From an uncultured Gemmatimonadaceae bacterium (GTDB lineage Bacteria; Gemmatimonadota; Gemmatimonadetes; Gemmatimonadales; Gemmatimonadaceae), in NCBI GenBank assembly GCA_963829055.1, contig CAWHHI010000006.1, forward strand, positions 128,001-192,000: a stretch of DNA of 64,000 nt, in the 5' to 3' direction. Of this stretch, positions 179 through 64,000 are shown in pieces. The notes under the pieces were generated by a model. The model made no database searches, was not told the origin of the DNA, and saw only the letters and a program-made list of their open reading frames with translations. A program made the position numbers and the translations under genes. The first letter of the stretch is position 1. Each line of letters begins with the position of its first letter.

Positions 179-224
179 GGCCGGTCACGCAGCGCCTAAC
201 GTACGGTGCGCTGCGTGACCGGCC
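179..224 (-). terminator. Intrinsic terminator-like hairpin after the S9 peptidase gene
   Basis: Perfect 17-bp inverted repeat GGCCGGTCACGCAGCGC/GCGCTGCGTGACCGGCC; short T run follows on the minus strand. Confidence 0.6.
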
Positions 225-239
225 ATTCAGCCACTGCTG

Positions 240-4174: not shown

Positions 4175-4474
4175 CCGTGAGTGATGGCCTGGATCGAGAG
4201 TGGTGACACACAGGACCGGCGGAACGCTAACCGAATGCGGGCTCTCTCACGCCGCCATTGGACCTTCGTCGAACACGACCACTCGGCAGAGTATACGGCG
4301 GCAGGTGCGCACGTGCAGCGCCCTACGCACAACCGCCCGTTCGTGTTGTGGGCTCACGTGCGCGACACCGTGCGCGTGTCGAGCTGGAGTTCACGCTCTA
4401 GCACAATCGGTCGCGCTCGCCGTCACGCGCGCCGCAGCGCATATTCGAATCGCCTCAACGGTAGCGAGGACGCG

Positions 4475-6155
4475 ATGCAGTCCACGGAGTACGATGCGAT
4501 CGTCGTGGGGTCCGGGATCTCCGGCGGCTGGGCCGCCAAGGAGCTCACCGAGAAGGGGCTCCGCGTGCTCCTGCTCGAGCGCGGACGCAACGTCGAGCAC
4601 ATCAAGGATTACGTCAACGCGACGAAGGGACCCTGGGAATTCGCGCATCGCGGTGGTCGCACGATCGCCATGGAAGAGCTCTATCCCGTCCTCAAGCGCG
4701 ACTACCCGCTGAACGAGAAGAACCTGTCGTTCTGGGTCAACGAGCAGGAGTCGCCATACACCGAGGTCCGACGCTTCGACTGGTATCGCGGCTATCAGGT
4801 GGGCGGACGATCGCTCATGTGGGGACGCCAGAGCTATCGCTGGAGCGACCTCGACTTCGAGGCGAACCTGCGTGACGGCATCGCCACCGACTGGCCCATT
4901 CGCTATGCCGACCTCGCGCCCTGGTACGATCACGTCGAGAAGCACGCCGGCATCGCCGGCTCGGTCGAGGGGATGGCGCAGCTTCCGGACGGGCAGTTCC
5001 AGCCGGCGATGCCGCTCAACTGCGGTGAGGAGCTCGTCGCTGGTCGCCTAACGAAGCTGTTCGACGGCAAGCGCCGCATCATCCCGGGTCGCACCGCCAA
5101 CGCCACGCAGGCCCTCCCGGGACGCACGCCCTGTCAGTACCGCGACGCCTGCTGGCTCGGCTGCCCCTACGGCGGCTACTTCAGCACGCAGTCCTCGACG
5201 CTCCCCGCCGCCGTGAAGACGGGACGCCTAACGCTCAAGCCGTTCGCCATCGTCAGCGAGGTGCTGTACGACCGTGACCGCAAGCGCGCGACAGGCGTTC
5301 GCGTCCTCGACGCGGTCACGAACCAGACGACGGACTACAACGCGCGCGTCGTCTTCCTCTGCGCCTCGACGCTCAACTCCACGTGGCTCCTCATGCGCTC
5401 GGCCACCGACGTCTGGCCGGGCGGTCTCGGGAGCAGCTCGGGGCAGCTGGGCCACAACCTCATGGACCACCACTTCCGGTGCGGTGCGTCCGGAAAGCTC
5501 GACGGGCCTGACGGACAAGTACTACAACGGACGTCGCCCTACGGGCTTTTACATTCCACGCTACCGCAATCTCTTCGGCGACAAGCGGCCGTACCTGCGC
5601 GGCTTCGGCTATCAGGGCGGCGCTGGCCGTGACGGCTGGTCGTCCGCGGTGGCCGAGCTCGGAGTCGGTGGTGCGTTCAAGGACAAGGCGGCGGAGCCGG
5701 GTGCGTGGAGCGTTGGCGCGACGGCGTTTGGCGAGATGCTGCCCAATCACAAGAACAAGGTGACCCTGGACGACAAGAAGACCGACAAGTGGGGAATGCC
5801 GGTGCTCAAGATCGACTGCGCGACCGGCGAGAACGAGCGCCTCATGCGAAAGGACATGGTGCACGACATGGAGGAGCTGTTGGAGCAGTGCGGCGTGAAA
5901 GAGGTGAACGGCTACGACAACGAGTGCTTCCCGGGCATGGGCATTCACGAGCTGGGCACGGCGCGCATGGGGCGGAGTCCCAGGTCTTCGGTGCTCAATG
6001 GCTGGAACCAGGTATGGGATGCGCCTAACGTGTTCGTGACCGATGGCGCGTCCATGGCGTCATCCGCATGCCAGAATCCGTCGCTCACGTACATGGCGCT
6101 CACGGCGCGCGCCGCGGATCACGCGGTGAACGAGCTCAATCGTCGCAACCTCTGA
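4475..6155 (+). CDS. GMC family FAD oxidoreductase; frameshift near 5505
   Basis: DAIVVGSGISGG FAD-binding motif; GGRSLMWG; C-terminal HELGTARMG and QNPSLTYMALTARA. Confidence 0.92.
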
Positions 6156-8599: not shown

Positions 8600-8827
8600 G
8601 AGATCCCTCGCTGTCGCTTCGCTGTCGCTCGGGATGACACCGACCGTGACGAGGCGTAACGGCATGTGGAGGTTCGGGCGTGAGACAGGGCCGTCAGGGC
8701 TGTGATTCCGAGCGGGCGTCATTCCGAGGCGCGCGAGCGCCGAAGGGCGCATCGAGGAATCCGCGGTGTCTTGGTAGAGGGCTCTCTACCGGGATGCCAA
8801 GGATTCCTCGCTCCGCTCGGAATGACA
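8600..8827. repeat. GTCAT(T/C)CCGAG-type palindromic REP-like elements, family A (half copy plus full copy)
   Basis: GTCATTCCGAG..TCGAGGAATC..GGTAGAGGGCTCTCTACC..GATTCCTCG..CGCTCGGAATGACA at 8718-8827; half site ending CTCGGGATGACA near 8639. Confidence 0.8.
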
Positions 8828-15033: not shown

Positions 15034-17504
15034 GTGGAAACATGGTGGCAGGATCTCCGTCACGGCCTTCGCGTTCTGACGACGCAGCCGGCTTTCACGG
15101 CGGTCGCCGTCGCGTCACTCGCGCTCGGCATCGGCGCCAACACCGCGATCTTCAGCGTCACGAACGCGCTGCTGCTCCGTCCACTGCCGTACGAGGACGC
15201 CGATCGCATCGCCATTCTCTGGCAGCGATCGCCGGGCTTGAACGTCGCGCAGGACTGGTTCTCGATCGGCCAGTACGTGGACATCCGAACCGACAACCAC
15301 GTGTTCAGCGACGTCGCGGCGACGATCGGCGCGAGCTTCAACCTCACGGGACGCGGACTGCCGGAGCGCATCGACGGCGCGCGCGTCTCGTCCTCGCTCT
15401 TCACGCTGTTCGGTGCGAAAGCCGCGGCTGGCCGCGTCTTCTCGGCCGACGAGGACCAGCCGGGTAAGCCGCCCGTAGCGATCCTGAGCAACGGATTCTG
15501 GAAGCGACGCTTCGGCTCCGATCCAGCCGTGGTCGGGCGCACGCTCACGCTCAACGGCACTACGGTCACGATCATCGGGGTGATGGCAGCGGACTTCGTG
15601 TTCAACAAGGAGATCATGCCGGCGGTGAACGGCATCCAGAACGTGGATCTCCTGCTGCCGCTGCCGCTCAACGAGACGGCGCGCGCGAACCGCGGCGGCG
15701 AGGACTTCAACATCTTCGCCAAGCTCGAGCCCGGCGTCTCGGTCACGCAGGCGCAGGCCGACATGAACGTGCTGGCCGCCCGGATGAAGCGCGACTACCC
15801 GGCCAACTATCCGCCTAACGGCGGGCTGACGGTCAGCGTCGTCCCGCTCATCAATCAGGTCGTCGGCGACGTGCGGCTCGCGCTCTACGTGCTGCTCGGT
15901 GCGGTCGGCCTCGTGCTGCTCATCGCCTGTGGCAACGTCGCGAACCTGCTCTTGTCGCGCGCGGCCGTGCGGCAGAAGGAGATCGCGATCCGTGGCGCCG
16001 TCGGTGCGAGCCGAGAGCGCATCGTCCGTCAGCTGTTGACGGAGAGCCTGCTGCTGGCGGCGTTAGGTGGCGTGCTCGGACTCGGACTCGCCATTGTCGG
16101 CCGTCAAGGTGCTCGGCCGCTTCGGACCGGCGAACATTCCGCGACTCGGCGAGATCGGCGTCGATGGGCGTGTGCTCGCGTTCACGTTCGGGATCTCGCT
16201 CGTCACGGGCGTGGTGTTCGGCTTGATGCCAGCGCTGCGCGCATCGCGCTTCGATCTCAACGACGTGCTGCGCGAAGGCGGCCGCGGCGGTGTCGGAACG
16301 AGCGCGTTCGGACTCGGCCACAATCAGCTGCGGCAACTGCTCATCACGGGCGAGGTCGCGTTGTCGCTGGTGTTGCTCATCGGTGCCGGGCTTCTCATCC
16401 GGAGCTACGAGCGCATCACGAACGCGAATCCGGGATTCGACCCGCATAACGTCATGTCGCTTCGCGTGACGCTCCCGGGCGCGAAGTACAAGACGCCGGA
16501 GGCGATCGCCGCGTTCTACAAGCAGCTCGAGCAGCGCGTGCGCGTCACTGCCGGGCGTGCAGTATCGTCGGGCATGAACTACCTGCTGCCGCTGAGCTCT
16601 GTCGCGTTAGGCTGGGAGCCGATCAGCGTCGAAGGGTACGTCGCGAAAGCGGCCGGTGAGGATCTGATCATCGCCAGCAGCGGGTACGTGAACCCCGACT
16701 ATTTCAGAGCGATGGGCATCCCGCTGCTCAAGGGTCGGTTCTTCGACGACCGCGACGTCCGCGGCGCGCCCGACGTCACCATCGTCGACGACAAGCTCGC
16801 GGCGCGGTTCTGGCCCGGTCAGGACCCGATCGGCAAGCGTCTCCGTCGCGGCGACTCGGGACCGTGGCGCACGGTCGTGGGCGTCGTCGCGGACGCGAAG
16901 GAGTACGAGGTGGACGGCGAACCGCCGATCACCGCGTTCTACCCGGCGGACCAGCTTGGCATTCCAAGCCGGTTCCTCGTGGTCCGCACAGCGTCGGATC
17001 CGACGGGACTCGCGACGGCGGTGTCGCGTGAGGTGCGAGCGCTCGACGCCGACCTGCCGGTGTACGACGTGAACACGATGGAGCAGCGACTGCACGACTC
17101 GCTCGCGCGTCGCCGGTTCTCGATGTTCCTGCTGGGCGTGTTCGCCGCCTGCGCGTCGCTGCTCGCGGCGATCGGCATCTACGGCGTGATCACGTTCTGG
17201 GTGACGCAGCGGACGCGCGAGCTCGGCATCCGCTCGGCCCTCGGTGCACGGCAGAATGGACATCCTGCGGCTCGTGATTGGCCAGGCGGTGATCGTGGTG
17301 GGTGCCGGAATCGCCATTGGCCTCGTCGCGGCATTTGGTTTGACGCGCGTGATGGCGAGCCTGCTCTTCGGCGTGAGCGCTACGGATCCGCTGACGTTCG
17401 CGCTGCTGGGAGTTGCGTTAGGCGTCGTTGCATTGGTGGCGAGCTTCATTCCTGCTCGACGAGCGGCTACCGTCGCGCCGATCATCGCGCTCAGGCACGA
17501 TTAG
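15034..17504 (+). CDS. ADOP-type duplicated ABC permease (MacB/FtsX repeats); frameshifted
   Basis: [68 protein letters not shown]. Confidence 0.92.
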
Positions 17505-17585
17505 CGTCCGGCGACGGAAAACGGCGGAAGAGTGTCCGGCGACGGCAGGGCCAGTTCGGAGCGCCCCAGTACTCAGTACGAGGTG

Positions 17586-18026
17586 TCAGGTTTCAGGGTC
17601 ACGCCGATTACGCTGCTGTACGCGCGGACGATTTCGGATCGGGCGGCGATTTGCGGGGCTTTCGGAGTCCGGCGATGCCAGCACGGTACGACGCAATGCC
17701 CAGAGCATCTTCCGCAGCTCCACGACTTCGCGAGCGAGTGGTTCCCACCTCTCGTGGCTTATCAGGCCGCGGTCGTGGGCGAGCTGAAGCTGGTAGTCGA
17801 ACTCGGAGGCGGACTTGATGCTGATGTCGAGGTAGCGCGCGAATTCTTTCCGCGATGCGGATGCGCACCCTTCAACAATGTTGTTTGGAATGGAGTCCAG
17901 AGCGCGACGCATCTGCGCTTTGAGCTCCGCATTGCCGCGTTGCGGAATGGCGGCGATGGCAACATGCGCGTCGAGCACGAACGCGTGGGCGCGTTGCCAC
18001 ACGAGGAGGCGACGGAAATCTTGCAT
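17586..18026 (-). CDS. Four-helix-bundle protein (23S rRNA intervening-sequence protein family, Avd-like fold)
   Basis: [46 protein letters not shown] matches the family pattern. Confidence 0.9.
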
Positions 18027-21300: not shown

Positions 21301-21461
21301 CCGTGAGCAGGGCGCGGATCTCCGTCAGGAGCGCCCTGTCGTCGCGGCATGCGTTCATCGAGGAAGGCTTCGCGCTCTTCCGGTTCGAGCTCGAGCGCGG
21401 CATCCAGCAGCGGCTCCAGCACGCTCCAGTGTTCGCGCGACAGGGAGCCGAGCGATTTCAA
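18303..21461 (-). CDS. Ser/Thr protein kinase associated with an ECF sigma factor (TM plus TPR-like C-terminus); frameshifted
   Basis: N-terminal REHWSVLEPLLDAALEL; RYRLGREVGRGGMATVY; VAVKVL; HLDIKPGN; DFGIA; GTPSYMSPEQ. Confidence 0.88.
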
Positions 21462-22719: not shown

Positions 22720-22825
22720 TTGCGTGCTGCGTGTTTGGGCACGGTGCTGCTTGCACGTCGCTCGGGCCGCTGGCTGCGCGCTGCTACAAGCAGCCGCATG
22801 CAGCTTGCACGCGGCGTGCAGCGTG
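22720..22825 (+). repeat. GCTGC/TTGC-rich repeat arm (direct copy at about 24490-24620; inverted copy at about 25175-25297)
   Basis: Shared core GCTTGCACGTCGCTCGGGCCGCT; the reverse complement of about 25230-25283 aligns over roughly 50 nt. Confidence 0.75.
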
Positions 22826-27418: not shown

Positions 27419-27523
27419 GTGGCCACCGGAGCCGAGTGCCCGCGCCTAGCGCCGCGACGATCCTCGACCAGCCCCGCGCGCTCAGATGCAAAGCACGCAG
27501 CCCCAGCGCAGCGAGCAGCCCGC

Positions 27524-28525
27524 CTAACGCCAGCGACGACTGGCCAACACCACGCCCGCGCCGACCGCCGCCGCGCTCAGCACCGTGGCCATGCGATGCA
27601 TTGACGTCATCGTGTAGAGGCTGCGCTTGCGCACCATGCCCGGATAGTTGCCCCGCTCCCGGCCACCGCCCTGCGGCTCGTAGAGTGAATCGTCACGCTT
27701 GCGCCGCGATGGCTTCTTCATCTTCTGCTGATCGAACATCGTCGCGCGCATGTAGCGATCCGCGACGCGCGGCACCGCGTCCATCGCCGCCGTCATCTTC
27801 CCGCCACCACCCACGATCAGGTCGCGACGCGCATGCTCGGCGCAGAAGAGGATCGCTTCCGCCACCACCGACGGGTCGTATACCGGCGGCGGATGCTTCG
27901 GCTCCGCTTCCATATAGTTGCGGGCGTGCTCCGGAAATGGTGTGTCGATCGCGCCCGGCTTGATCAGCGTCACCGAGATCGGCGCTTCCTCCTTCTCGAT
28001 CTCCATCCGCAGCGCATCGGTGAACGCCTTCACCGCGTGCTTGCTCGCGGAGTAGTGGCCCTGCAGCGGAATCGCGCGATCGCTCGTGACACTGCCGACG
28101 TTGATCAGTGCGCCCCCGTGATCCTTGAGATGCGCGACCGCCGTCAGCGACCCGTGGACCATCCCCCAGTAGTTCACGTCGAACAGACGCCGTGCGTCCT
28201 CGACGGGCACTTCCTCGATGGGGCCGTAGATGGAGACGCCGGCGTTGTTGACCCAGGTGTCGAAGCCGCCGAACGCCTCGGTCGCGCGCTCCGCGATCAT
28301 GCCGACGTCATCGAGACTCGCGACATCGGCCATGACCGTGATCGCGCGGCCACCGGAGCCTTCGATCTCGACACGCGCGCTCGCCAGTCCTTCTGGGTCG
28401 CGGGCCGCGAGTACCACCCGCGCGCCCAGCTGCGCGGCCATCTTTGCCGTCGCGAGCCCGATCCCGCTCGAAGCACCAGTGATGACGACGACCTGGTCTT
28501 CGATACGCTTGAGCTTTACTCCCAT
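27524..28525 (-). CDS. SDR family oxidoreductase
   Basis: VVITGASSGIG; WVNNAG; YSASK catalytic motif; PGAIDTP. Confidence 0.93.
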   Translation of the reverse strand: MGVKLKRIEDQVVVITGASSGIGLATAKMAAQLGARVVLAARDPEGLASARVEIEGSGGRAITVMADVASLDDVGMIAERATEAFGGFDTWVNNAGVSIYGPIEEVPVEDARRLFDVNYWGMVHGSLTAVAHLKDHGGALINVGSVTSDRAIPLQGHYSASKHAVKAFTDALRMEIEKEEAPISVTLIKPGAIDTPFPEHARNYMEAEPKHPPPVYDPSVVAEAILFCAEHARRDLIVGGGGKMTAAMDAVPRVADRYMRATMFDQQKMKKPSRRKRDDSLYEPQGGGRERGNYPGMVRKRSLYTMTSMHRMATVLSAAAVGAGVVLASRRWR

Positions 28526-28577
28526 GCGCTCCCCGACGAAAAAGAAGAGAGCGTTGGAGTTCAAGAATCCTGCCGCG

Positions 28578-28904
28578 TCAGTCCTTGACCATCGGCAGCC
28601 CCGCGTCGATCCACTCCTTCTTGCCGCCCGAGTACTCGCGGATGTTCGTGTAGCCCATCGCCTCGAGCTCGCTAGCGGCCCAGCCCGATGTCGGGCAGTC
28701 GTCGTCCCAACAATAGAGCACGATCTCGGCGCTCTTGTCGGGGACGACCTCGCTCGCGACGGCCGCCACCGCCGTCGGCGGCAGGTTCTTCGCGCCGGGC
28801 AGGTGGTGCTTCCGGAAATACATGAGCGGCAACACCTCGAACAGCGTGAAGGTGTCGCCGCGATCCATTTTCTCTTTGAGCTCGTCGCGCGTGATGATGA
28901 CCAT
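28578..28904 (-). CDS. Rhodanese-like domain protein
   Basis: ITRDELKEKM..HLPGAKNLP..IVLYC..MGYTNIREYSGGKKEWIDAGLP. Confidence 0.9.
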   Translation of the reverse strand: MVIITRDELKEKMDRGDTFTLFEVLPLMYFRKHHLPGAKNLPPTAVAAVASEVVPDKSAEIVLYCWDDDCPTSGWAASELEAMGYTNIREYSGGKKEWIDAGLPMVKD

Positions 28905-28923
28905 GGTGAAATGTAGATGCGCG

Positions 28924-29385
28924 CTAAGCACTTGAGCGACCATCGTTTGCCTTCCGGGGTGTGTCCGCAATGGGTCCACCGGACTCGTTTTCGATCACCC
29001 TGAGGGTAGTCGCGGCGTCCGCTTGCTCGTAGGAGCGCTTCATCGTCGCGAGGTCCCTCCAGCCGCCGGCGCGCGGCGGCAGCTGGCACGCGACGACGTC
29101 GCCGCGGCGGATGGGGGCGAGCAGTTCGCCCTTCCTCCCGCGTAGTGGCCTGACCGTGAACAGCTCGCCAGCGAGCAGCGTCGGCGCCATCGCGCTCCTG
29201 AGATTCCAGTACGAGGGGCCGTCGCGTTTGCCGCCCGCGGTGGAATCACCGACCAGCACCACGATGTACGCGACCGCCATCAGCCCGAGGCCGACGGGGA
29301 TGAGCATGAGCGCGAGGGCGAGCGCCGCATAGGCGAGTCCCGGCGTAAGGTGTGGAGGCGGCTTCGCAGCCGGGGATGATAGCAA
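28924..29385 (-). pseudogene. Chimeric remnant: signal peptidase I-like N-terminus joined to a tyrosine-recombinase-like C-terminus
   Basis: TM plus SAMAPTLLAGE..IRRGDVV (S26-like, catalytic Lys region missing), then GGWRDLATMKRSYEQAD resembling an integrase box II tail. Confidence 0.5.
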
Positions 29386-34621: not shown

Positions 34622-34641
34622 GCGGGTTTGCGCCCGGCGCT

Positions 34642-37925: not shown

Positions 37926-37940
37926 TAGACTCGAGAGAAA

Positions 37941-39567: not shown

Positions 39568-39616
39568 TCGAATAGGCGCGGATCGCGGGTGACCCGTTTC
39601 CTCGCTTACTTACGGG

Positions 39617-40745: not shown

Positions 40746-41075
40746 GTGAACACAGATCTCGATCTCCTCCGCGGCACGCTCGATGTGCTGGTGCTCAAGT
40801 CGCTCATCTTCGGGGCGCGACACGGCTACGACGTCGCCGCGTGGATCTTCGAGACCTCGCGCGAGACCCTGCGTGTGGACGAGGGCGCTCTGTACACCTC
40901 GCTCCACCGCATGGAGAACCGCGGCTGGCTCGAGTCGGAGTGGGGCATGTCCGACAACAACCGGCGCGCGAAGTTCTACCAGCTCACCGCGAAAGGACGG
41001 GCACAGCTCAAGCGCAGCACCGCGGACTGGACGCGCTACGCCGAAGCCGTGTTCCTCGTCCTTCGCGCCGCCTGA
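40746..41075 (+). CDS. PadR family transcriptional regulator
   Basis: LLRGTLDVLVLK; HGY; EGALYTSLHRME; NNRRAKFYQLT. Confidence 0.93.
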   Translation: MNTDLDLLRGTLDVLVLKSLIFGARHGYDVAAWIFETSRETLRVDEGALYTSLHRMENRGWLESEWGMSDNNRRAKFYQLTAKGRAQLKRSTADWTRYAEAVFLVLRAA

Positions 41076-41088
41076 CGAGGACACGCTC

Positions 41089-43725
41089 ATGCCTATCGAC
41101 GGAATTCGCCGCGCTTTTCGTCGCACCGGACGCGACGCATCGACCGACGTCAGCGACGAGCTCGCGTTCCACTTCGCTCGCCGCGTGGACGACTTGGTCG
41201 CGCGAGGAATGTCGCCCGACGCTGCCCGCGCCGAAGCAGTCCGCGCATTCGGCGATGTCGACCACGTGCGTCGCGAGATGGAGCGCATGACGCGCGCTCG
41301 CCAGGGTCGCGTACGACGCGGCGAATGGCTGGGCGATCTCGCGTACGACGTGCGCTACGCCGCGCGAGGAATGCGACGCACCTGGGCGTTCACACTCGTC
41401 GCGCTGCTCACGCTCGCGCTCGGCATCGGCGCGACGACGGCGACGTTCAGCATCGTGAATGCGGTCCTGCTCCAGCCACTCGCGTTCCCTAACGCGGATC
41501 GCCTGGTTCGTGTGTGGGAACGCACCGACCGCGCGGACCGGGTTCAGCTCGCGACGCCGAACCTGCTCGATCTCAAGGAGCGCTCGCGAACGCTCGCGTA
41601 TCTCGCGGGCTACATGGGCGGAAGCACCGTCGTCCTGGGCGCCGATAAGCCGGTGCGCGCGCAGGCGTACGCAGTCACACGCGACTTCTTCGACGTGCTC
41701 GGCGTACGCCCCGTGCTCGGTCGCCCGTTCGTGCCTGACGAGGCCGTGGAGAATGGCCCGCGCGCGATCATCGTCAGTTACGACTTCTGGCAACGCTTCC
41801 TTGGCGGTACGCGCGACATAGAGCGGCGAGCGCTCGACATTTATGGGACGCGCTATCAGGTCGTGGGCGTCATGCCCGCGGGCTTCGCGTACCCGGCGGG
41901 AGCAGAGATCTGGATGGCGCGCGAGTTCGGCGCCGGCGAATCGCGCACGTCGCACAACTGGCAGGCCATCGGGCGCCTAACGCCGACAGCCACGATCGAG
42001 ACCGCACGGGCCGATCTCGATGGGATCATGCGCTCGCTCGCCGCGCAGTACGGAACGGCCATGAACGGCAGCGGGATCAACATCATGGGTCTCGCCGACT
42101 CGCTCGTCGGGGGCGTACGGCGTCCGCTGACGCTCATCTTCGGCGCGGTGGCGTTCGTGCTGCTCGTGGCGTGCGTCAACCTCGCGAGCGCGAACCTGGC
42201 GCGCGGTGAGTCGAGGCGGCAGGAGATGGCCGTGCGCGCCGCGCTCGGAGCAGGGCGCTCACGGCTCGCGCGCCAGTTGCTGGCCGAGAATGTGTTGATG
42301 GCGATCATTGGTGGCGCGTTCGCGCTGGTCGTCGGTTACGCGTTCACGCGCGCGCTGATCTGGATCGCGCCCGCCAACCTGCCGCGTCTCGCGGAAGTAC
42401 GACTCGATATCCGCGTCGCGGCATTCACGATTGCCCTCGCCACGCTGACGGGCGTGCTCATTGGCGTACTGCCGGCGATGCAGGTCGCGCGGTCTGCGTT
42501 GCGAGATGCGATCTCGGCAGGCGGACGCGCGGGCATCAGCGGCGACGGAGGAGCGAGTCGCAGGATTCTCATCGGTGCCGAGGTGGCGCTCGTGGTCATG
42601 CTGCTCGTTGGCGCGGGCCTGACGCTGCGAAGCTTCCGCACGCTGCTTCAGCAGGATCCCGGGTTCGACCCGACGGGCGTGCTGGCGGTGCAGGTCGATG
42701 TGCCAGCAACCAAGTACGGTGACAGCACACGCGCCGTCGCATTCTATGATCGCTTGTTAGGCGAGGCTCGTGCGTTGCCGTCCGTCACGAGCGTCGGCGT
42801 GATCAACATCGCGCCGCTCGACGCGTGGCACATCAATGGTGGCTTCGAGATCGCGGGTCGTGAGTCCAAGGGCGGCGCGAGCTATCGCGTCATTGGAGGG
42901 GATTACTTCCGCGCGATGTCGATTCCCCTGCGCCGCGGACGCCTGTTCCAGGAGAGCGATCGATCCGGCTCGCCTCACGTCGTCATCGTGAACGAAACGG
43001 CCGCCGCGAAGCTCTGGCCGGGAACGGATCCGATCGGTCAGCGCATCCGCTACACGGGCATGGACAGTCATAGCGACGACTGGATGACCGTCATCGGTGT
43101 GGTTGGCGACGTCCATCAGCTCGGGCTTGCCGTCCCGGCCGAGCCGGAGACGTATGTGCCGTTTGCGCAGCGTCCGGAGCGACTGGTGAACCAGGCGACG
43201 ATCGTCATGCGATCGACGTCCGATCCGGCATTGCTGTCGGCGGCCATCCGCGAGCGCATCCAGGCGGTGGACAGGGAAGTGCCGACGACGATCAAGACGT
43301 TCGATAGCGTGGTGCTCGCGTCCGTTGCTGACAGGCGATTCACGATGGTGGTGCTGAGCGCGTTCGGAGTCTTCGCGCTGTTTCTGGCGGCGGTCGGCAT
43401 CTACGGCGTGCTCGCGTACTCGGTGAATCGCCGCACGCGCGAGATCGGCGTCCGCATGGCGCTCGGCGCCGCACGAGGTCGCGTTCTTCGCATGATCCTG
43501 AGAGATGCGATGCGCGCGGTCGTCCCGGGCATAGGGGTCGGGATCGCCGGCGCCCTGATGCTGACGCGATTGATGTCGGGCCTGCTCTACGGGATTGCGC
43601 CGACGGATCCTCTGACGTTCGTGGCCGTGATCGCGGTGCTCGTGGTGGTGACGCTTGCGGCGAGCCTGGTCCCTGCGCGGCGCGCGACCAGGGTCGATCC
43701 CATGGAAGCGATTCGTGCTGCGTGA
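41089..43725 (+). CDS. ADOP-type duplicated ABC permease with permease-prefix domain
   Basis: DELAFHF..GMSPDAARAEAVRAFG; LALGIGATTATFS; LVACVNLAS; RRTREIGVRMALGA; PARRATRVDPMEAIR; intact frame. Confidence 0.95.
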   Translation: MPIDGIRRAFRRTGRDASTDVSDELAFHFARRVDDLVARGMSPDAARAEAVRAFGDVDHVRREMERMTRARQGRVRRGEWLGDLAYDVRYAARGMRRTWAFTLVALLTLALGIGATTATFSIVNAVLLQPLAFPNADRLVRVWERTDRADRVQLATPNLLDLKERSRTLAYLAGYMGGSTVVLGADKPVRAQAYAVTRDFFDVLGVRPVLGRPFVPDEAVENGPRAIIVSYDFWQRFLGGTRDIERRALDIYGTRYQVVGVMPAGFAYPAGAEIWMAREFGAGESRTSHNWQAIGRLTPTATIETARADLDGIMRSLAAQYGTAMNGSGINIMGLADSLVGGVRRPLTLIFGAVAFVLLVACVNLASANLARGESRRQEMAVRAALGAGRSRLARQLLAENVLMAIIGGAFALVVGYAFTRALIWIAPANLPRLAEVRLDIRVAAFTIALATLTGVLIGVLPAMQVARSALRDAISAGGRAGISGDGGASRRILIGAEVALVVMLLVGAGLTLRSFRTLLQQDPGFDPTGVLAVQVDVPATKYGDSTRAVAFYDRLLGEARALPSVTSVGVINIAPLDAWHINGGFEIAGRESKGGASYRVIGGDYFRAMSIPLRRGRLFQESDRSGSPHVVIVNETAAAKLWPGTDPIGQRIRYTGMDSHSDDWMTVIGVVGDVHQLGLAVPAEPETYVPFAQRPERLVNQATIVMRSTSDPALLSAAIRERIQAVDREVPTTIKTFDSVVLASVADRRFTMVVLSAFGVFALFLAAVGIYGVLAYSVNRRTREIGVRMALGAARGRVLRMILRDAMRAVVPGIGVGIAGALMLTRLMSGLLYGIAPTDPLTFVAVIAVLVVVTLAASLVPARRATRVDPMEAIRAA

Positions 43726-45480: not shown

Positions 45481-45696
45481 GAGGGCGGACGGCGGAAGGC
45501 GGAGAAAAGGCGTTGTCATCCCGAGCAAAGCGCCATGTCATCCCGAGCGCAGCGAGGGATCTTCTCGAACGTCATCGGAGCCAGTCCGGCCACGATACCG
45601 TCACAGAAGGTCCCTCGTCGCTGTCGCTCCTCGGGATGACATGCGCGTTCCTCCGCCCTCCGCCCTCCGCCCTCCTCCTTCCTAAGCCCTCCGCCC
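45481..45696. repeat. Family A (TGTCATCCCGAG subtype) element flanked by GGCGGAA/CCGCCCT heptamer arms
   Basis: Core 45514-45641 is an inverted near-copy of 56405-56512. Confidence 0.85.
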
Positions 45697-51451: not shown

Positions 51452-53027
51452 TCAGGTCCGATCCGCCGGCTTAGGTCGCCTAGTCGACGCTGGCTCTGCC
51501 ACCGCGTAAGGTCTCGACTCCGTGCTGACTCGCTGACGCTCCGCTCGGGATGATGCCAGGCCCAAACCGCCTAACGAAATCCGATTAGGAATCGGCCGCC
51601 GGCCCGAGAGCTCTTTCACCAATCGATAAAGAAACTCCTGCCCGTCGTAGAAGGACTTGATCAGCACGCGCTCGTCCCGCCCATGCGCGCGGGAATCATC
51701 CATATCCCCGAACAATCCCGACACGCCATACGTCGGGATCCCACCCTGCCGCAGTTGCCGCCCGTCGGTTGCCCCCGTGCCCATGATCGGGACCACGGGC
51801 ACTCCCGGCCACATCTCGCTCGTCAGCTTCTCGATCGGGCGCAACACTTCATCGGACAGCGGGGATGGTGGACCACCGCGAGGCTCGGGCGCGGGCGACA
51901 CGTGCACCGCCGTGTCGCCCGCTATCCTGACGAGGCTCGCCTGCACGTCCTTGATGTCGTGGTCGGGCAGAACCCGGCAGTTCACGTTGGCGCGCGCGAG
52001 CTGCGGCAGCGCGTTAGGCGCGTGACCGCCCGTGAGCTGCGTCGCCACGCACGTCGTGCGGAGCATGGAGTTGTACACCGGCTGCATCGAGAGCCGTCGC
52101 ACGGCCGCCGAGTCGCGTCGGGTTCTTCGCCACCGCGCGCATGTCCGCCGCCGTCTGGCCCGTCTCGGCCTGCGCGAGGCGCTCGAAGTACGCCTTCGTC
52201 ACCGGGTTCAGCATCACCGGAAAGTCGAAGCGCTCGAGCCGCGCCAGCGCGTCGGACAGATGGTAGATCGCGTTGTCACGGACCGGTCGCGAGCTGTGCC
52301 CACCCTTGTTCCGCACCTCGAACGTGAAGTCGTAGTACACCTTCTCGGCCGCCTGCACGTTATGCACGAACGGCTTGCCATTCTTGAGGAAGCCGCCACC
52401 GCCCTCGTTGAGCGCGTACGCCGCGTCGATCAGATCGCGTTTGTTCGCGAGCAGCCACTCGACGCCGTTGTGATCGCCGCCCTCTTCGTCCGACGTGAGC
52501 GCCACGATGAGGTCGCGGTCGGGAACGTACCCCTCCTGCTTCATCCGGATCAGGTTCGCGATCCAGATCGCGGCCATCGCCTTGTCGTCGCCGGTGCCGC
52601 GTCCGTAGTAGTAGCCGTCCTTCTCCGTGAACGTGAACGGGTCGATGCTCCAGTCATCGCGACGCGCGGCGACGACGTCGAGATGCGCGAGCAGGAGGAC
52701 CGGCTTGCGTCCCGCCGCGCCGGAGCCGCGAAGGCGCGCGACGAGATTGCCATCGCGTGGACCGGCGCTCAGGACCTGAACGTCGTTACCCGAAAATCCC
52801 GCCGCCCGGAGACGCGCCGCCATCGCTTCGGCCGCCTGCGTCGTGCCGCCGGGATCGGCATCCGTGGTCGTGTTGATCTCGACGAGCTCTTTATAGATGT
52901 CGCGCGCGAGCTGCTGGTGCGCCTTGAGCGCACCCTGCGCCGTTACCAGGCGAGGCAGCGACGCGGTCGCGGCGACGAGAGCGATTGCGATGAAACGGGC
53001 AAACACGGGGCGGCAACTGATGGCCAT
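51452..53027 (-). CDS. M20/M25/M40 family metallo-hydrolase; true stop may be near 51585; frameshift near 52115
   Basis: LLAHLDVV; GRGTGDDK; SDEE; NEGG; GGHSS; GATDG; AHGRDER. Confidence 0.92.
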
Positions 53028-53191
53028 GTCCAATCTCCGGCAGAGGCGCGGGTTATTGTCTTGCTGTAACGGAGAAAGTGCAGGCGGTGCGCACGCGGCG
53101 TAAAGGACGGCCGACGTCTCGCCCCACACGTCTTGACCGCGGTGACTACGCGGACGTACACTTTGGCGACCTACCCATAGGGAACCAATGT

Positions 53192-53530: not shown

Positions 53531-53658
53531 GCGCAATGCCCGTCCATGTCGCAGTGCTTGCGAACCGGCTCCACATGACAGCGCTCACCATGATGCAGGA
53601 CGCGCTCGACCCGACGTTCATGCGCGTGGTCGACTTCACGATGAGGGCACATCGATGA
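53527..53658 (+). CDS. 43-aa small ORF coupled to padR and to the permease gene
   Basis: GTGA overlap with the padR stop and ATGA overlap with the permease start; MSAMPVHVAVLANRLHMTALTMMQDALDPTFMRVVDFTMRAHR. Confidence 0.5.
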   Translation: MSAMPVHVAVLANRLHMTALTMMQDALDPTFMRVVDFTMRAHR

Positions 53659-56355
53659 TCTCCTGGCTCCGTGGCCTCTGGCTGCGCCTCAGATACTACG
53701 TTCTCCGCGCGCGGTACGATCGCGAGATGGAAGAAGAGATGCGTTTCCACGTCGAGCTTCGCGCGGCAGAGCATCAGCACGCGGGTATGACGGAGGAGGA
53801 AGCGCGAGACGCCGCGACGCGACGGTTCGGCAACCGCACATCGCTGCAGGAATCACGACGCTCGGCCGTCGGCTTCCCGACGCTCGACACGCTCGGTCAG
53901 GATGTTCGGTACGTCCTGAGAGCGATCCGCCACTCGCCAGGCTTCAGCGCGATGGTGGTCCTCACGTTAGGCCTCGCGATTGGCGCCAACGCGGCGATGT
54001 TCGGGATCATCGATCGGCTCCTGCTTCGCGGACCGGCGTTCGTGGTCGATCCGGACCGCGTCGTGCGCGTGTACGTCACGGAGAAGGACGGCAACTTCGG
54101 CGAGTCGACCGGAAGCGTCGTCGGGTTCGTCACGTACGACCATCTGCGCGCAACCGCCCATGATTTCGAGGATCTCGCGGTCTACTCGCGAACCGAGGTG
54201 ACTGTCGGGCGAGGCATGGATGCCCAGCGGATTCAGCTGGGCCGAGTGTCGTGGAATTTCTTCCCGATGCTGGGCGTTAGGCCGGTGGTGGGTCGCTTCT
54301 TTGGCGCCGACGAGGATCGTCTGCCGCAGGGCGAGAACGTCGTCGTTCTGGACGAGGGCTACTGGAAGCGGTCGTTTGCGGGTGATCGCGGCGTGATCGG
54401 CCGTCCGCTCGTCATGGGTGGTGTGACGTACACCATCGTTGGCGTGGCGCCCCGAGGGTTCACGGGCGTCGAGCTCGAGCGTCGCGACGCGTGGGTGCCG
54501 ATCAGCCTGACGTACTGGGGGCCGGGCAGCGATTGGGCGACTGGCTGGGACATCAACTGGCTTCAGATCGTCGGCCGACTCAAGCCCGGTGTCACGCTGG
54601 CGCAGGCAGGTGCCGATGCCACCGCTGCTCACCGGCGCGCGTACGACGGTCCGGCGAACCATACGATGCGCACCGCGCGGCTCTCGGTAGCGCCGCTGCG
54701 CTTCAATCGGAGCGCCGAGGAGACGACCGAAGCGCGTGTGTCTCGCTGGCTGGTCGCGGTCGCCGCGATCATGCTGCTCATTGCCTGCGCGAACGTCGCG
54801 AACCTCATGCTCGCGCGAGCGACGCGTCGGAGACGCGAAGTGGCGGTGCGTCTCGCGCTCGGCATCGGTCGCGGCCGGCTCATCCGGCTACTCGTAGCGG
54901 AGAGCGTGGCACTCGCACTCCTCGGCGGTGCGGCGGGGCTTCTGGTTGCGTTCGTGGGCGGGCGGTTCGTGCGCGGCGTGCTGCTGCCTAACGTCGAATG
55001 GACGGACTCGACGATCGACGCTCGCGTCCTCATCGTGACGGCGCTCGCGGCGGTGGCGACTGGCGTACTGGTCGGGCTCATCCCGGCGTTTCAGGGGACG
55101 CGCCTCGAGCTCACGTCCGCGCTCAAGTCGGGCGTCCGCGAAGGCGGCGCACAGCGCAGTCGCGTTCGTACCATGCTCACGGTCACACAAGCGGCGCTGT
55201 CCGTGGTCCTGCTGGTGGGCGCCGGACTGTTCGTCCGAAGTCTGTGGAACGTCTATCGTCTTCAGCTCGGCATCGAGCCCGACAAGGTGCTCACGGTGGC
55301 GTTCGACTGGCCGACCATCGCCGACCGATCGGACGAAGGCAAACAGCGTCAGCGCCAGCGGCAAGACATGTTCTACGATGAAGCCCTGGCGCGCGTGCGC
55401 ACGTTGCCGGGCGTCGAGCGCGCTGGTGTCGTGGTGGGCACGCCGTTCCAGTCATCGGCGAGCACCGATCTGCGCTTGCCCGGGCGCGATTCGATACCTC
55501 AGCTCGCGGGCGGCGGCCCGTACATTCGCGCGGTGTCGGACGGCTACTTCGCGACCGCCGGCACGCGCGTGTTGCGAGGACGCGACTTCACGGCAGCTGA
55601 TGTCTCGAGCGCGGCACGTGTGGCGATCGTGAACGAGACGATGGCTCGCACGCTGTGGCCTAACGCGGACCCGATCGGCGAGTGCCTGTTGATCGACACG
55701 CTTGCCGTGCTCGAGCGTCGTCGGCGTCGTCGAGGATGCTCGCCGCTTCTCGCTCCGCGAGAAGCCCGCGATGCAGTACTACATCCCGCTCGGCGAAGAG
55801 CACGCGATCGGATTCGGTGGACGGCGTATGTTCGTGCGGCCGCGCGGCGATGCATCCGCGCTCCGTGAGACGTTGCGCGCAGAGATGCTGCGCCTGAATC
55901 CGGGGCTCGCGTTCGTGACGGTGGAGCCGCTGCAGGATTCGCTCGACCCACAGATCCGCCCGTGGAGGTTGGGCGCAACGATGTTCGGCTTGTTCGGCGC
56001 GCTCGCGTTGCTCGTGGCGGCAATTGGCCTGTACAGCGTCATCTCGTATCTCGTGACGCAGCGTCGCCACGAGCTCGGCGTTCGCATCGCGCTCGGCGCG
56101 CAGATGGGGAACATTGTCGGGATGGTCGTGCGCTATGGTGTGGGATTGGCGGTGGTGGGCATCGTCATCGGCATGGTGCTGGCACTCAACGCGTCGCGGC
56201 TGATCGAGCCGCTGCTGTTCGAGACGTCGCCGCGGAACCCGCTCGTGTTCATGCTGGTGGCGGCGGTGCTGTTGGTGGTCGCGTTGGTGGCGAGCGTGAT
56301 CCCGGCGTGGCGTGCCTCACGAGTCGATCCCATCGAGGCGCTGAGGACGGAATAG
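53655..56355 (+). CDS. ADOP-type duplicated ABC permease; frameshift near 55705
   Basis: EMEEEMRFH..ATRRFGN; LGLAIGANAAMFG; LLIACANVANL; QRRHELGVRIALGA; RVDPIEALRTE. Confidence 0.93.
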
Positions 56356-56356: not shown

Positions 56357-56545
56357 CGGAGGCGCGGAGGGCGGAAGGCGGAAGGCGGAAGGCGGAGAAA
56401 AGCGTGTCATCCCGAGGAGCGGCAGCGACGAGGGACCTTCTGCGATGCCATCGTAGCCAGTGCGGCCACGAGCACGTTCACAGAAGATCCCTCGCTGCCG
56501 CTCGGGATGACACTCTTTCCCGCCCTCCGCCTTCCGCCCTCCGCT
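56357..56545. repeat. Family A (TGTCATCCCGAG subtype) element with GGCGGAA / (T/C)TCCGCC heptamer arms
   Basis: (GGCGGAA)n left arm; core 56405-56512; CCGCCCTCCGCCTTCCGCCCTCCG right arm. Confidence 0.85.
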
Positions 56546-61190: not shown

Positions 61191-61559
61191 ATGAAAACGC
61201 GACCGCCCGACCCGCAGACCCTCCTGCCGCTCCCCGTCTCGGAGTTCCAGATCCTGCTCGCGCTCGCCGACGAGGAGCGTCACGGCTACGCCATCAAGCG
61301 CGAGGTCGCGGACCGCACCAACGGCGACGTGCAGCTCGGACCCGGCACACTGTACGGCGCCATCAAGCGCATGGTGAGCAGCGGCTTCATCGAGGAAAGC
61401 GATGAGCGGCCCGACCCCGACCTCGACGACGAGCGCCGCCGCTACTACCGCATCACGTCGTTAGGTCGCCAGGTGGCGGTCGCCGAAGCGCGACGCATGG
61501 AGCGACTCGTCGGCATCGCGCGCGCCAAGCGACTCCTCGGCCGACCCGAGCCGGCATGA
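61191..61559 (+). CDS. PadR family transcriptional regulator
   Basis: FQILLALADEERHGYAI; GPGTLYGAIKRM; ERRRYYRIT. Confidence 0.93.
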   Translation: MKTRPPDPQTLLPLPVSEFQILLALADEERHGYAIKREVADRTNGDVQLGPGTLYGAIKRMVSSGFIEESDERPDPDLDDERRRYYRITSLGRQVAVAEARRMERLVGIARAKRLLGRPEPA

Positions 61560-64000
61560 CCCGCCTCGACGGTCCCGGCCGGTTCGCGACCACCTTCGTT
61601 CGCGCGCTGCTCCGGCTGTATCCAACAGCGTTCCGCGAACGCTACGGCCGCGAGGTCGAACAGCTCGTGCGTACCGCGTGGGCAGATCGACCCGCTTCCG
61701 GCGCCGAACGCCCGGTCGCGTTCTGGGCGTTGGTTGCGGCTGACCTCACGATCGGCGCCACACGCGAACGCCTCGCGACAGTGCGTGAGTGGCGTCGAAG
61801 CAGGGAACGTCGCCGACTCGCGCGCACGCACGCTTCCATCAATGGGCCTTCAACTCAGGACGGCGGTATGGGCACGCTGGCGCAGGACCTCCGGTACGCG
61901 TGGCGCACGGTCCGCAAGAGTCCGGGCTTCGCGCTCGTCGTCATCACGTCGCTCGCGTTAGGGATCGGCGCGAACACGCTCATCTATAGTGTGGTGGACG
62001 GCATCGTTCTGCGACCGTTCCCGTACCCTAACGCGGACCGCCTCGTCGCCATCGGCGTGACGTACCCCGCGATGAACGGCGAGCGACGGTTCATCGAGGC
62101 CGTTTCGCCGCCCGAATACAACGACATCCGCGCTGGCGTCTCATCGATCCAGCAGGCGTTCGCGTTCGACCTCGGCAATCGCAACATCTCGGGTGGCGAT
62201 CAGCCCGAGCGCGTGTTCACCGGGTTCATCTGGGGCGATCCCATGGCGTCCATCGGCGTTCGCCCGCTGCTCGGCCGCAGCTTCCGCCCCGAGGAGACGA
62301 CGGCGCAGCGGACCGGCCGTCGCGGTGATCAGTCATCGCATCTGGCAATCCCGGTTCGGAGGCGACTCGGCGATCATCGGCAAATCCATTCGCGTGAACG
62401 GCCAGCCGACCGACATCGTCGGCGTCATGCCACCCGGGTTCCTGCTCGTCGGCACCGACCTGTGGCTGCCCATGGGTGTCGAGCCGTCTGCGATTCCGCG
62501 TCAGGCACGGCAGTGGACGGTGATCGGGCGGCTGCGCGACGGCGCGACGATGGCGCAGGCGAACGCCGAGGTGAAGGCGCTGGCCGGGCGTATCGAGCGC
62601 GAGTACGGGCGCGAGCGAAAGGAGTACGCCGGCTGGCGGATGGAAGTCGACACGTGGACGAATGCCGTCGTCGGCGGATACAAGCCGGCGGGACGAATCC
62701 TGCTCGGCGCGGTCGCGCTCGTGCTGGTGATCGCCTGCGCGAACATCGCGAGCCTGCTGCTGGCGCGGGCCACGGCGCGGCAGCGCGAGCTCGCCGTGCG
62801 TCGAGCGCTCGGGGCGGGGACGAGCGCGCATTGCGCGACAGCTGCTCACGGAGAGTCTGCTGCTCGCGATCGTCGGCGGATCCGTCGGACTCCTGCTGGC
62901 GTACGCGTTGCTCGGTCCGACGATCGTCGCTCTTCCCGCAGCAGCTGCGAGACGCCGGCGTCGCGGCGACCATCAACGGACGCGTTCTGCTCTACACGTT
63001 AGGTGCCGCGGTCGCGTCCGGCTTGTTGTTCGGCGTCGCGCCGGCACTGCAGGGCCTGCGTGGCGGTGGACGGGAGTGGCTCACCGGCGAGGGCGCGGCC
63101 GGCCGCCTGACGACCAGCGCCGGCGGGCGACGCGTGCGCAACGCATTCGTCGTGGCGGAGATCGCGCTCTCGCTCATGCTGCTCGTTGGTGCGGGCGTGC
63201 TGCTCCGCAGCTTCACGCGGCTGCAGCACGTGGATCCCGGATTCGACACGCGCAACGTGCTCACGATGCGCCTGTCGCTGCCGCGCGAGCAGTACAAGAA
63301 CGACGCCGTGGGCGTGTTCTTCGAGGACGTCTCGCGGCGACTCGCGACCGTGCCGGGCGTGCGTTCGGCCGGCGCGACCACGCAGTTCCCGCCAGGCAAC
63401 TCGTTCGCGACCAGGTCTCACCGTCGATGGTCAGTCGCAGCCGACCGACCAGGCGCCAATGGTCGACATCACGAACGTCGCCGGCGACTACTTCGAGGCG
63501 ATGGGCTACACGCTCAAGGCGGGTCGCCTGCTCACGACGACGGACGACGAGAAATCGCCGCTGGTGGCCGTCGTGACCGAGGGCGGCGGCTCGACGATTC
63601 TTCGGAGGCGGTAGCGCGCTCGGACGTCGCATCGCGCTTGGCGATGACGACGCCGCGGAGATGGGTGGAGGTCGTGGGCGTGGTGGCCGACGTGCGCAAT
63701 CACGGTCTCACCGAGGCGCCGACGCCCGAGGTGTTCGTTCCGGTGCGCCAGCAGATCGCCGGCTGGAACAACCAGCTCTTCCTGACGATCCGCACGCAAT
63801 CGGATCCGCTCGCGATGCTTCCGGCCGTTAGGCGGACCATCGCGCAGGTCGATCCGCTCCAGCCGGTGTACGCGATCCGCACACTCGATGGCGCGTTCGC
63901 GGAGGCTGTCGCACAGCGTCGAGCGGCCATGCTGCTGATCACGATCTTCGCCGGTGTGGCGCTCGTGCTCGCGGCGGTCGGGATCTACGGTCTCATGTCG
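61556..64000 (+). CDS. ADOP-type duplicated ABC permease (runs off the window; frameshifted)
   Basis: LLRLYPTAFRERYG prefix; [41 protein letters not shown] at the window edge. Confidence 0.9.
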   Translation, partial: MTRLDGPGRFATTFVRALLRLYPTAFRERYGREVEQLVRTAWADRPASGAERPVAFWALVAADLTIGATRERLATVREWRRSRERRRLARTHASINGPSTQDGGMGTLAQDLRYAWRTVRKSPGFALVVITSLALGIGANTLIYSVVDGIVLRPFPYPNADRLVAIGVTYPAMNGERRFIEAVSPPEYNDIRAGVSSIQQAFAFDLGNRNISGGDQPERVFTGFIWGDPMASIGVRPLLGRSFRPEETTAQRTGRRGDQSSHLAIPVRRRLGDHRQIHSRERPADRHRRRHATRVPARRHRPVAAHGCRAVCDSASGTAVDGDRAAARRRDDGAGERRGEGAGRAYRARVRARAKGVRRLADGSRHVDECRRRRIQAGGTNPARRGRARAGDRLREHREPAAGAGHGAAARARRASSARGGDERALRDSCSRRVCCSRSSADPSDSCWRTRCSVRRSSLFPQQLRDAGVAATINGRVLLYTLGAAVASGLLFGVAPALQGLRGGGREWLTGEGAAGRLTTSAGGRRVRNAFVVAEIALSLMLLVGAGVLLRSFTRLQHVDPGFDTRNVLTMRLSLPREQYKNDAVGVFFEDVSRRLATVPGVRSAGATTQFPPGNSFATRSHRRWSVAADRPGANGRHHERRRRLLRGDGLHAQGGSPAHDDGRREIAAGGRRDRGRRLDDSSEAVARSDVASRLAMTTPRRWVEVVGVVADVRNHGLTEAPTPEVFVPVRQQIAGWNNQLFLTIRTQSDPLAMLPAVRRTIAQVDPLQPVYAIRTLDGAFAEAVAQRRAAMLLITIFAGVALVLAAVGIYGLMS

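Follow-up and report, generated by a model that had tools for sequence, protein, structure and literature searches.

Background

Several kinds of short DNA word are already known to be iterated throughout whole genomes. The DNA uptake sequences (DUS) of the Neisseriaceae and the uptake signal sequences (USS) of the Pasteurellaceae occur at a density of roughly one per kb with even spacing, and to our knowledge these two families are the groups in which genomic tags of this kind have been described. HIP1 of the cyanobacteria (GCGATCGC) is a palindromic 8-mer linked to methyltransferases, and the octamers called Chi and KOPS/AIMS (FtsK-orienting polar and architecture-imparting sequences) are co-oriented with replication. 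A site of another nature is the attC of integrons, whose inverse core and core follow the consensus RYYYAAC/GTTRRRY in an extract of PMC3053210 and at whose AAC triplet the integrase cuts, according to an extract of bioRxiv 10.1101/2022.09.11.507474. Here we examine a stretch of 64,000 nucleotides from an uncultured Gemmatimonadaceae bacterium (hereafter the window: assembly GCA_963829055.1, contig CAWHHI010000006.1, positions 128,001 to 192,000, that is C6:128001-192000 of the genome that we call G000) and show that in this genome a directional force acting at the DNA level writes and keeps an 8-mer identical to the integron core, GCCTAACG/CGTTAGGC (looser form RCCTAACR), at about one copy per kb and with short-range interference between copies, and that it does so in patchy soil lineages belonging to two phyla.

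In an extract of PMC11893778, DUS are present in thousands of copies, promote the import of DNA via the pilus and lie within coding sequences in 34% of cases. The word described here resembles DUS and USS in being short and non-palindromic, in its density of about one per kb, in its equal use of both strands and of several gene frames despite the codon cost, in its absence from foreign DNA and in having lineage variants; hyper-abundance on both strands and spacing more even than random, two hallmarks of uptake sequences, were both found. It differs from them in that it belongs to another phylum, has an identical core in two phyla and coincides with the integron recombination core, and in that it shows neither AT-rich flanks nor inverted pairs forming terminators (only 20 inverted neighbour pairs closer than 40 bp). 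Among the analogues named in the original prediction, which was made from the letters of the window, uptake sequences provide the best fit.

The word belongs among the genome-wide iterated words, a type of feature already known. In the open literature, subscription-only papers lying outside the search, we found no report of a genome-wide integron-core word, and a search for uptake sequences in any Gemmatimonad returned none. The raw word yielded only primers and oligonucleotides among the matches listed, and the literature joining integrons, DNA uptake sequences and attC had Ssn nucleases as its topic, not a genome-wide word.

Abundance and form of the word

The original prediction had counted by hand 63 copies of CCTAAC in the window (34 on the plus and 29 on the minus strand), 59 of them CCTAACG, and a pattern search on both strands recovered exactly these copies between positions 195 and 63832 (59 CCTAACG plus four further CCTAAC). 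Shuffles of the window preserving dinucleotides contained on average 2.80 copies of CCTAACG, with a maximum of 8 and none of the 100 shuffles reaching the observed 59 (32 plus, 27 minus), and on average 5.93 copies of CCTAAC. Copies of CCTAACG were spaced about 1.1 kb apart on average. In the whole G000 assembly (7,784,024 bases in 20 contigs, 66.7% GC, completeness 85.9%) CCTAACG occurred 6391 times, 3154 on the plus and 3237 on the minus strand, and the 8-mer GCCTAACG occurred 5004 times when Markov models of orders 1 to 3 expected 102 to 258 copies. This 8-mer was the most over-represented of all 8-mers relative to base composition (16.9x); a ranking by the maximal-order Markov model was uninformative for it because the sub-words of the word carry the signal themselves. 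The base preceding CCTAACG was G in 78% and A in 13% of the copies, a weak preference for C or A followed the word, and nothing else was conserved within 15 bases on either side, the element therefore being a bare 8-mer rather than a piece of a longer repeat.

To account for codon usage, synonymous codons were permuted within each of the 5498 called genes in 10 replicates. Gene calling was crude (68.5% coverage), being hampered by frameshifts in the assembly, and the 2235 copies falling in "intergenic" DNA include uncalled genes and were not used as evidence. The called genes contained 2982 copies of GCCTAACG versus 137.6 +/- 13.2 under this null (22x), which is a conservative comparison because the rare codons of the word itself stay in the null. 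Words differing from the core by one base were 4 to 14x below the codon-aware null (for example GCTTAACG, 5 versus 72.6, and GCCTAATG, 2 versus 28), and this depletion was present at all core positions. Three variants, ACCTAACG, GCCTAACA and GCATAACG, were enriched 4 to 13x under the Markov and the codon-aware nulls. The enrichment thus stood up to Markov models of orders 1 to 3, to dinucleotide shuffles and to the codon-preserving shuffle of coding sequences, and the word is a genome-wide iterated signal at the DNA level, neither a basecalling artefact nor an effect of codon usage.

Effects on coding sequences

All four reading frames free of stop codons are used by the word in called genes, namely CCT-AAC (1103 copies), xxC-CTA-ACG (723), xCG-TTA-GGx (1451) and xxC-GTT-AGG (491), and sense (1826) and antisense (1942) copies are nearly balanced. 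More than half of the TTA codons of called genes lie inside the word (1452 of 2663, 54.5%), as do 19% of the CTA codons, and the word supplies 394 stop codons (216 of the 696 TAA and 178 of the 1447 TAG). These figures uphold the view in the original prediction that the word is written into genes in several frames, rare codons and stop codons included, by a signal that is blind to strand and frame and overrides codon preference. Proline-asparagine is the eighth most over-represented dipeptide (1.39x expectation), its commonest codon pair being CCT-AAC (1236 of 3203) when CCT makes up only 7% of proline codons; some copies of the word have therefore probably changed the protein sequence.

The window offers examples of each kind of use. 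The copy at 5047..5053 on the plus strand reads xxC-CTA-ACG (Leu-Thr, with the rare CTA, starting at codon position 3) in an open reading frame (ORF) resembling GMC oxidoreductases by Pfam (4181..5632), and the plus-strand copy at 6024..6030 reads CCT-AAC (Pro-Asn, codon position 1) in ORF 5274..6155. The minus-strand copy at 54275..54281 reads xxC-GTT-AGG (Val-Arg, with the rare AGG) in a MacB/FtsX permease ORF (53655..55868, Pfam). Stop codons are provided at 27523..27529 (plus strand), whose complement gives the TAG (CGT-TAG-G) of a minus-strand short-chain dehydrogenase ORF (27524..29089, Pfam), at 34616..34622 (minus strand), giving the TAG (CGT-TAG-G) of a plus-strand PAS/histidine-kinase ORF (33218..34621, Pfam), and at 52012..52018 (minus strand), giving the TAA (CC-TAA-CG) of the minus-strand ORF 52014..53129.

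In the essential gene rpoB of G000, where the density of the word equals that found elsewhere, all four copies are silent recodings on the conserved peptides G-L-T, A-L-G, P-L-G or S-L-G, and nine named word-poor Gemmatimonadota relatives have CTC, CTG or CTT at the same positions (named relatives have RpoB proteins 60 to 86% identical to that of G000). Copies have arisen in place, by point substitutions that mostly kept the protein, turning CTC or CTG into TTA or CTA (Leu) and CCG into CCT (Pro).

The turnover of sites was followed within the genus in the rpoB/rpoC neighbourhood, at 81 to 93% nucleotide identity; window positions 20001-40000 were also aligned with congeners, and with only eight sites comparable, at 74 to 81% identity, this alignment was dropped as insufficient. 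Fifteen of 24 sites of G000 were identical in the relative, as compared to 45.9% of background 7-mers. The 20 unshared site pairs differed by one base in only three cases (61% in the background), by two bases in 11, by three in four and by four in two. Most of the two-base differences opposed CCGAGCG to CCTAACG, the recurrent event being CGCTCGG to CGTTAGG, that is CTC to TTA. Given the rarity of intermediates, either sites one base away are quickly completed or the change is concerted.

Identity with the integron core site

The word fits the inverse-core/core consensus of integron recombination sites, including the extra G that the attC sites of this lineage carry, and contains the AAC cleavage triplet; CCTAACG is also present in the classical attC-aadA7 oligonucleotides in an extract of PMC12614218. 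This identity came to light when the same pattern search revealed, in the word-poor genomes G015 and G013, clusters of CCTAACG on one strand about 550 bp apart, which are attC arrays with cassette-like spacing that share a longer repeat (GCCTAACGGATCGCGCTTAAGCTGCGGCGCGCT). G000 itself encodes an integron integrase (intI at C20:208041-208958, minus strand; TIGR02249, 265.7 bits for a cut-off of 265) beside a dispersed cassette array of a sedentary chromosomal integron that extends over approximately 90 kb (C20, about 119-207 kb), with attC sites starting with GCCTAACGC and ending with ACGTTAGGC. An inverted GTTAGGC...GCCTAAC element lies next to intI (C20:207951-207978), and single attC-like sites were found in other places too, such as C20:890463, C9:210157 and C10:178153. 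The word is identical in eight of eight positions to the R'' and R' boxes of the attC sites of G000 and of the arrays in G015 and G013. That this identity arose by chance is unlikely, since it concerns one particular 8-mer and was met independently through the attC arrays. The original prediction was right about a DNA signal and missed its being the R box of attC.

More than 6000 copies are solo sites with no conserved flanks. Plus/minus pairs of CCTAAC 40 to 150 bp apart number only 78 in the genome, the orientation classes of neighbouring copies are equally frequent, and by eye about a dozen such pairs on C20 (119 to 207 kb) have the look of attC, as do a few in other places. The word thus has the sequence of the R box and lacks the attC architecture, an imperfect palindrome of 57 to 141 bp in which R''-L''...L'-R' are paired at the end of a cassette.

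Spacing and word-free blocks

Copies avoid one another at short range. Gaps shorter than 200 bp numbered 408 when 978 were expected, and those of 400 to 1500 bp were 1.2 to 1.3x above expectation. The closest pair in the window, 71 bp apart (61956, minus, and 62027, plus; 61956..62033), belongs to a class of gaps that is rare genome-wide.

Three blocks of G000 contain no copy (C6:5440-55038, C11:1-44055 and C6:591808-623330), in total 125 kb, all of them at contig ends. They carry housekeeping genes, including trp and aro genes for aromatic amino-acid synthesis, those for FtsK and GreA, glnA (glutamine synthetase), folD and ilvD, and the two blocks on C6 have a GC content of 70 to 73% versus 66.7% for the genome. 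Prophages or islands were considered for these blocks and rejected on account of the housekeeping genes; chimeric joining, contamination with other DNA or a large transfer is their more probable origin.

Distribution across genomes

Taking as enriched any genome with at least twice the count of the reversed-word control, 16 of the 401 Gemmatimonadota genomes sampled were enriched, 13 of the 94 from the family of G000 (Gemmatimonadaceae), three of the 166 from a second family (G201, G354 and G161) and none of the 141 from elsewhere. Among the 13 of the family, G230, G287 and G393 (4.0 to 4.4 Mb) had between 3479 and 4141 copies each, G294 had 4469 and G314 1966. Most other genomes had 5 to 40 copies where the control had 100 to 400, and G283, which belongs to the same genus as G230, G287 and G393, had only 66. 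Ten of the 14 sampled genomes nearest to G000 by RpoB similarity were enriched and four were not, one genome being left out. The trait clusters near G000 and is nevertheless patchy. Six congeners, in assemblies of 260 to 1170 contigs, had 2501 to 5112 copies each, and GCCTAACG was again the top 8-mer in 200 kb samples of G010 and G201. In G010 an extra word, GCCAAACG, occurs 925 times versus 110 for its control, and among 101 genomes of the family only G459 was also mildly raised (408 versus 207); this extra word looks like a dialect. Over a tested stretch of 8 kb, the 1.1 Mb contig of G294 matched PLSDB entry NZ_CP007129.1 at 100% identity; this entry is of Gemmatirosa kalamazoonensis, a cultured organism with a finished genome. 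The word is found on the finished 5.3 Mb chromosome and on both megaplasmids of G294.

Outside the phylum, one of the 301 Verrucomicrobiota genomes sampled was enriched (G769, 2140 copies in 2.9 Mb). The RpoB of G769 is 57% identical to that of G000, the same value as for another Verrucomicrobiota genome, and G769 is therefore not a mis-binned relative of G000. In 400 kb of G769 the word takes the form of a 9-mer, GCCTAACGA (271 copies versus 2.1 expected, the A being present at 86%), is unpolarised (211 versus 181) and shows a deficit of short gaps (11% versus 18% expected). No attC array was seen within 20 kb on either side of the intI of G769, where the 9-mer dialect could have been compared with the genome's own attC sites. 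Unusually similar genes as candidates for a shared reader were sought between 440 kb of G769 and G000, and the best matches, at 72 to 74% identity and unannotated, included no outlier. A second and still more abundant word, TGTCGATCT(T), was observed in the same genome (G769:C4:100001-499431), with 727 copies in 400 kb versus 6.3 expected.

Mapping the word across the genome and its relatives thus did not bear out the idea of a lineage-specific signal, as the same 8-mer is enriched in at least 13 genomes of the family, three of a second family and one of the Verrucomicrobiota.

Possible mechanisms

The explanation that we tentatively favour, based on the pattern of copies, is a transmission bias acting on kilobase-sized DNA fragments, like that attached to the uptake sequences of Neisseria and Haemophilus, with a candidate reader having the specificity of the R box. 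Under this model a factor would recognise the double-stranded word in either orientation on fragments of kilobase size and would, whether at uptake or at integration, favour the transmission of some fragments or alleles over others, as DNA uptake sequences do in natural transformation. Alleles with the word would then replace alleles without it, which amounts to a molecular drive, and one site per fragment would be enough, a second one nearby adding little. Such a bias accounts for a density of about one site per kb, for the equal use of strands and frames and for how few one-mismatch intermediates there are. A second site less than about 200 bp away would seldom occur because one site per fragment suffices, a short-range deficit that is predicted by uptake-sequence drive and not by a site-by-site repair bias. 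As the word is the same as the R box of integrons in both phyla, a reader with the specificity for this box is probable, or one that evolved to favour DNA bearing cassettes. Dialect-like variation (GCCAAACG in G010, GCCTAACGA in G769) and word-free blocks of differing GC within one assembly also speak for this model.

Several points weigh against it. ComEC was present in all five genomes tested, word-rich and word-poor, and being found equally in word-poor genomes it is a necessary condition only and discriminates nothing; a receptor candidate, such as a pilin of the ComP type, was not found, no proteome-wide phyletic profiling having been made. A pure uptake model leaves the identity with the R box unaccounted for, as so far do the other models, and this identity may instead be a sign of a recombinase. 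The second word of G769 is a further difficulty, as a genome would not usually be expected to have two uptake words. Frye is said to have reported in 2013 that the uptake sequences of Neisseriaceae diversify into dialects, whereas the 8-mer here is unchanged across two families and two phyla. The depletion of one-mismatch words is in part due to nulls inflated by the rare codons of the word itself.

It is possible, if rather unlikely, that the solo sites are recognised as genome-wide R boxes by the IntI integrase or by a tyrosine recombinase closely related to it (half sites like attI or attG) and, with the same reserve, that these sites are kept or spread because IntI recombination or cassette traffic favours the DNA carrying them. 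The word shares with the integron att sites (the R box of attC/attI, and attG) its sequence and the AAC triplet; it fits their consensus and agrees in all eight positions with the R'' and R' boxes in the attC sites of G000 itself, and enrichment in a second phylum is what a horizontally moving system of conserved specificity should produce. IntI was detected in G000, G769 and G201 by TIGR02249; integrases are described, in extracts of bioRxiv 10.1101/2022.09.11.507474 and PMC12614218, as inserting cassettes at genomic attG sites and as acting on transforming single-stranded DNA. Nevertheless, TIGR02249 exceeded its cut-off in six of the 10 word-rich genomes tested and in 10 of the 13 word-poor ones, a comparison limited by the incompleteness of metagenome-assembled genomes, IntI was not found by this model in the word-rich G002, G004 and G010 and only partially in G006, and the closest homologue of the G000 IntI (56%) is in the word-poor G283. 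Within this limit the presence of IntI does not track the word, so that IntI alone would not explain which genomes carry it. Moreover, genomic insertion sites need only GWT and not the 8-mer, according to the same extract of bioRxiv 10.1101/2022.09.11.507474, IntI is not known to carry out any reaction that writes point substitutions, the density of sites is no different in the essential rpoB, and the word GCCAAACG of G010 (GTTTGGC) breaks the R-box consensus. In contrast to att sites, the more than 6000 copies have no L box, hairpin partner, cassette or nearby intI, show no attC pairing with their symmetric neighbour orientations, and lie in conserved genes where they were made by silent substitution and not by insertion.

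Rather unlikely too is the idea that, in certain soil Gemmatimonadota and Verrucomicrobiota, the core site of integrons also serves as an "exchange tag" across phyla, with a reader of R-box specificity biasing the transmission of any DNA in which the word is found. This reader could belong to the integrase family itself and act on single strands as they enter, or be a factor for uptake or integration that is adapted to the DNA of cassettes. If this were true, cassettes and chromosomal alleles would share one sequence-tagged channel of exchange, for which the chromosome would have been rewritten at about 6000 sites, with 394 stop codons and an excess of Pro-Asn among the effects.

We consider it unlikely that some abundant protein of the chromosome (a nucleoid protein, one involved in loading of structural maintenance of chromosomes (SMC) complexes or in segregation, or one initiating repair patches) binds at the copies, each of them being maintained by weak selection for a density of roughly one per kb. 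In favour of this are the even spacing and the exclusion at short range, independence of strand and frame, conservation within the genus above the background (15 of 24 versus 46%) and the presence of the word on the chromosome and both megaplasmids of G294. Against this, selection per site would be tiny when distributed over about 6000 sites and would have to beat the codon bias against TTA, CTA and AGG, the patchiness among congeners (about 4000 copies in G230, G287 and G393 versus 66 in G283) requires gain or loss of the reader, and no candidate protein was identified.

A conversion of near-cognate words driven by methylation or mismatch repair, as by very-short-patch (VSP) repair or in proposals of the HIP1 type, appears quite improbable. 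The depletion of one-mismatch core neighbours beside a 22x enrichment of the perfect word, and unshared sites that mostly differ by two bases or more with few intermediates, are compatible with it. Nevertheless the depletion affects all core positions, not the one expected from a single mismatch specificity, and a repair bias working site by site does not predict the deficit of neighbours within 200 bp. Vsr (PF03852) and C5 methylase (PF00145) were not found in G000, which is 86% complete, and we do not assign the word to VSP repair. The methylome of Gemmatirosa kalamazoonensis obtained by SMRT (single-molecule, real-time) sequencing lists as m6A (N6-methyladenine) motifs RGATCY, ATGCAC and CCAGN7TCA only and does not mention the word (PMC3974934); none of these motifs is related to the word, m5C (5-methylcytosine) and exotic modifications being outside that methylome. 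The suggestion in the original prediction that the word marks a base modification is accordingly disfavoured, given this word-rich organism and the enzymes not found in G000. HIP1 is similar in being an 8-mer placed in genes regardless of frame, spread over many genera in a patchy and graded way, and it differs in being palindromic; the word is non-palindromic and absent from the methylated motifs of Gemmatirosa, and does not belong to the HIP1 type.

It is very improbable that the word is a guide sequence with strand polarity, as Chi and KOPS are. The word shares with Chi and KOPS/AIMS octamers its being short, non-palindromic and over-represented, and differs in not being co-oriented with replication, so that it falls outside this class: its copies divide into 3154 plus and 3237 minus, runs of orientation and correlation with GC skew on 12 contigs revealed no replication polarity except on C5 (runs z -2.57) and C3 (p 0.04), and at the skew switch of C16 the share of plus copies moved only from 44% to 50%. 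The description of the word as neither palindromic nor polarised therefore holds.

Finally, an artefact of assembly or basecalling is practically inconceivable: the long-read-like assembly does have indel errors, visible as single-base gaps against metagenome contigs and in an rpoB split over two frames (G000:C19:47991-52509, near C19:51343-51350), but no one-substitution neighbour of the word is missing (GCCTGACG 1763, GCCGAACG 1720, GCCTCACG 717 copies), copies are just as numerous in six congeners and in G294, whose genome is finished, differing source codons (CTC, CTG) became the same word with the protein kept, as in rpoB, 125 kb of the same assembly are word-free, and sites 6991 and 10334 are covered by contigs, short as they are, from four independent runs on soil, rhizosphere or sediment, for which the 40 differences listed out of 510 include some in the flanks and none within the word. 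This last comparison demonstrates the word in other runs and does not extend to an absence of variants; parts of the stretch occur in runs of 16 studies. The basecalling errors that the original prediction had raised as a way of refuting itself are thereby excluded.

Implications

If the favoured transmission bias is true, a tag like an uptake sequence exists outside the Neisseriaceae and Pasteurellaceae, in abundant soil phyla whose gene exchange is little known, and this tag is tied to the integron recombination core, so that one step of recognition might serve for the traffic of cassettes as well as for chromosomal exchange. Codon usage and the choice of stop codons are measurably distorted by the word, and protein sequence probably is too. 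It is also a practical marker that flags native versus foreign or chimeric DNA in genome bins, as with the three word-free blocks. With about 4500 copies in the finished genome of the cultured Gemmatirosa kalamazoonensis KBS708, the question is directly testable.

Other features of the window

At least four large genes for MacB_PCD/FtsX permeases, a strongly expanded family, are located in the window (15034-17818, 40783-43725, 53655-55868 and 61556-64000), and they have many paralogous matches of about 70% identity in congeners. The permease ORF 53655..55868 contains four copies of the word (53965, 54275, 54987 and 55659), and the permease ORF 40783..43725, of 980 amino acids, contains two on the plus strand (41488 and 41976; 41488..41982). 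The permease ORFs 15034..16449 and 16067..17818 overlap out of frame, which we attribute to indel errors; such errors probably also lower the completeness estimate of 85.9%. A segment of G000 of about 6.5 kb (window 28900-35500), including the PAS/histidine-kinase gene 33218..34621, is missing between the flanking genes in five of five congeners; the density of the word in it is normal, and its ends do not lie at copies of the word.

A second and unrelated repeat, TGTCATTCCGAGCG with the variant GTCATCCCGAG, forms mostly paired intergenic hairpins, its core being present in 685 copies in G000. This core resembles the GTCATTCC...GGAATC hairpin (NTS/SRM), which an extract of PMC11893778 ties to the Ssn single-strand nucleases of the GIY-YIG family. 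In the window the pattern search located copies of the repeat at 8628-8816, 22452, 36244-36364, 40499-40632, 45515-45630, 46956-47087, 48531-48643 and 56406-56501. One copy lies upstream of rpoB (L001:5290-5400), and the repeat has many matches in all congeners.

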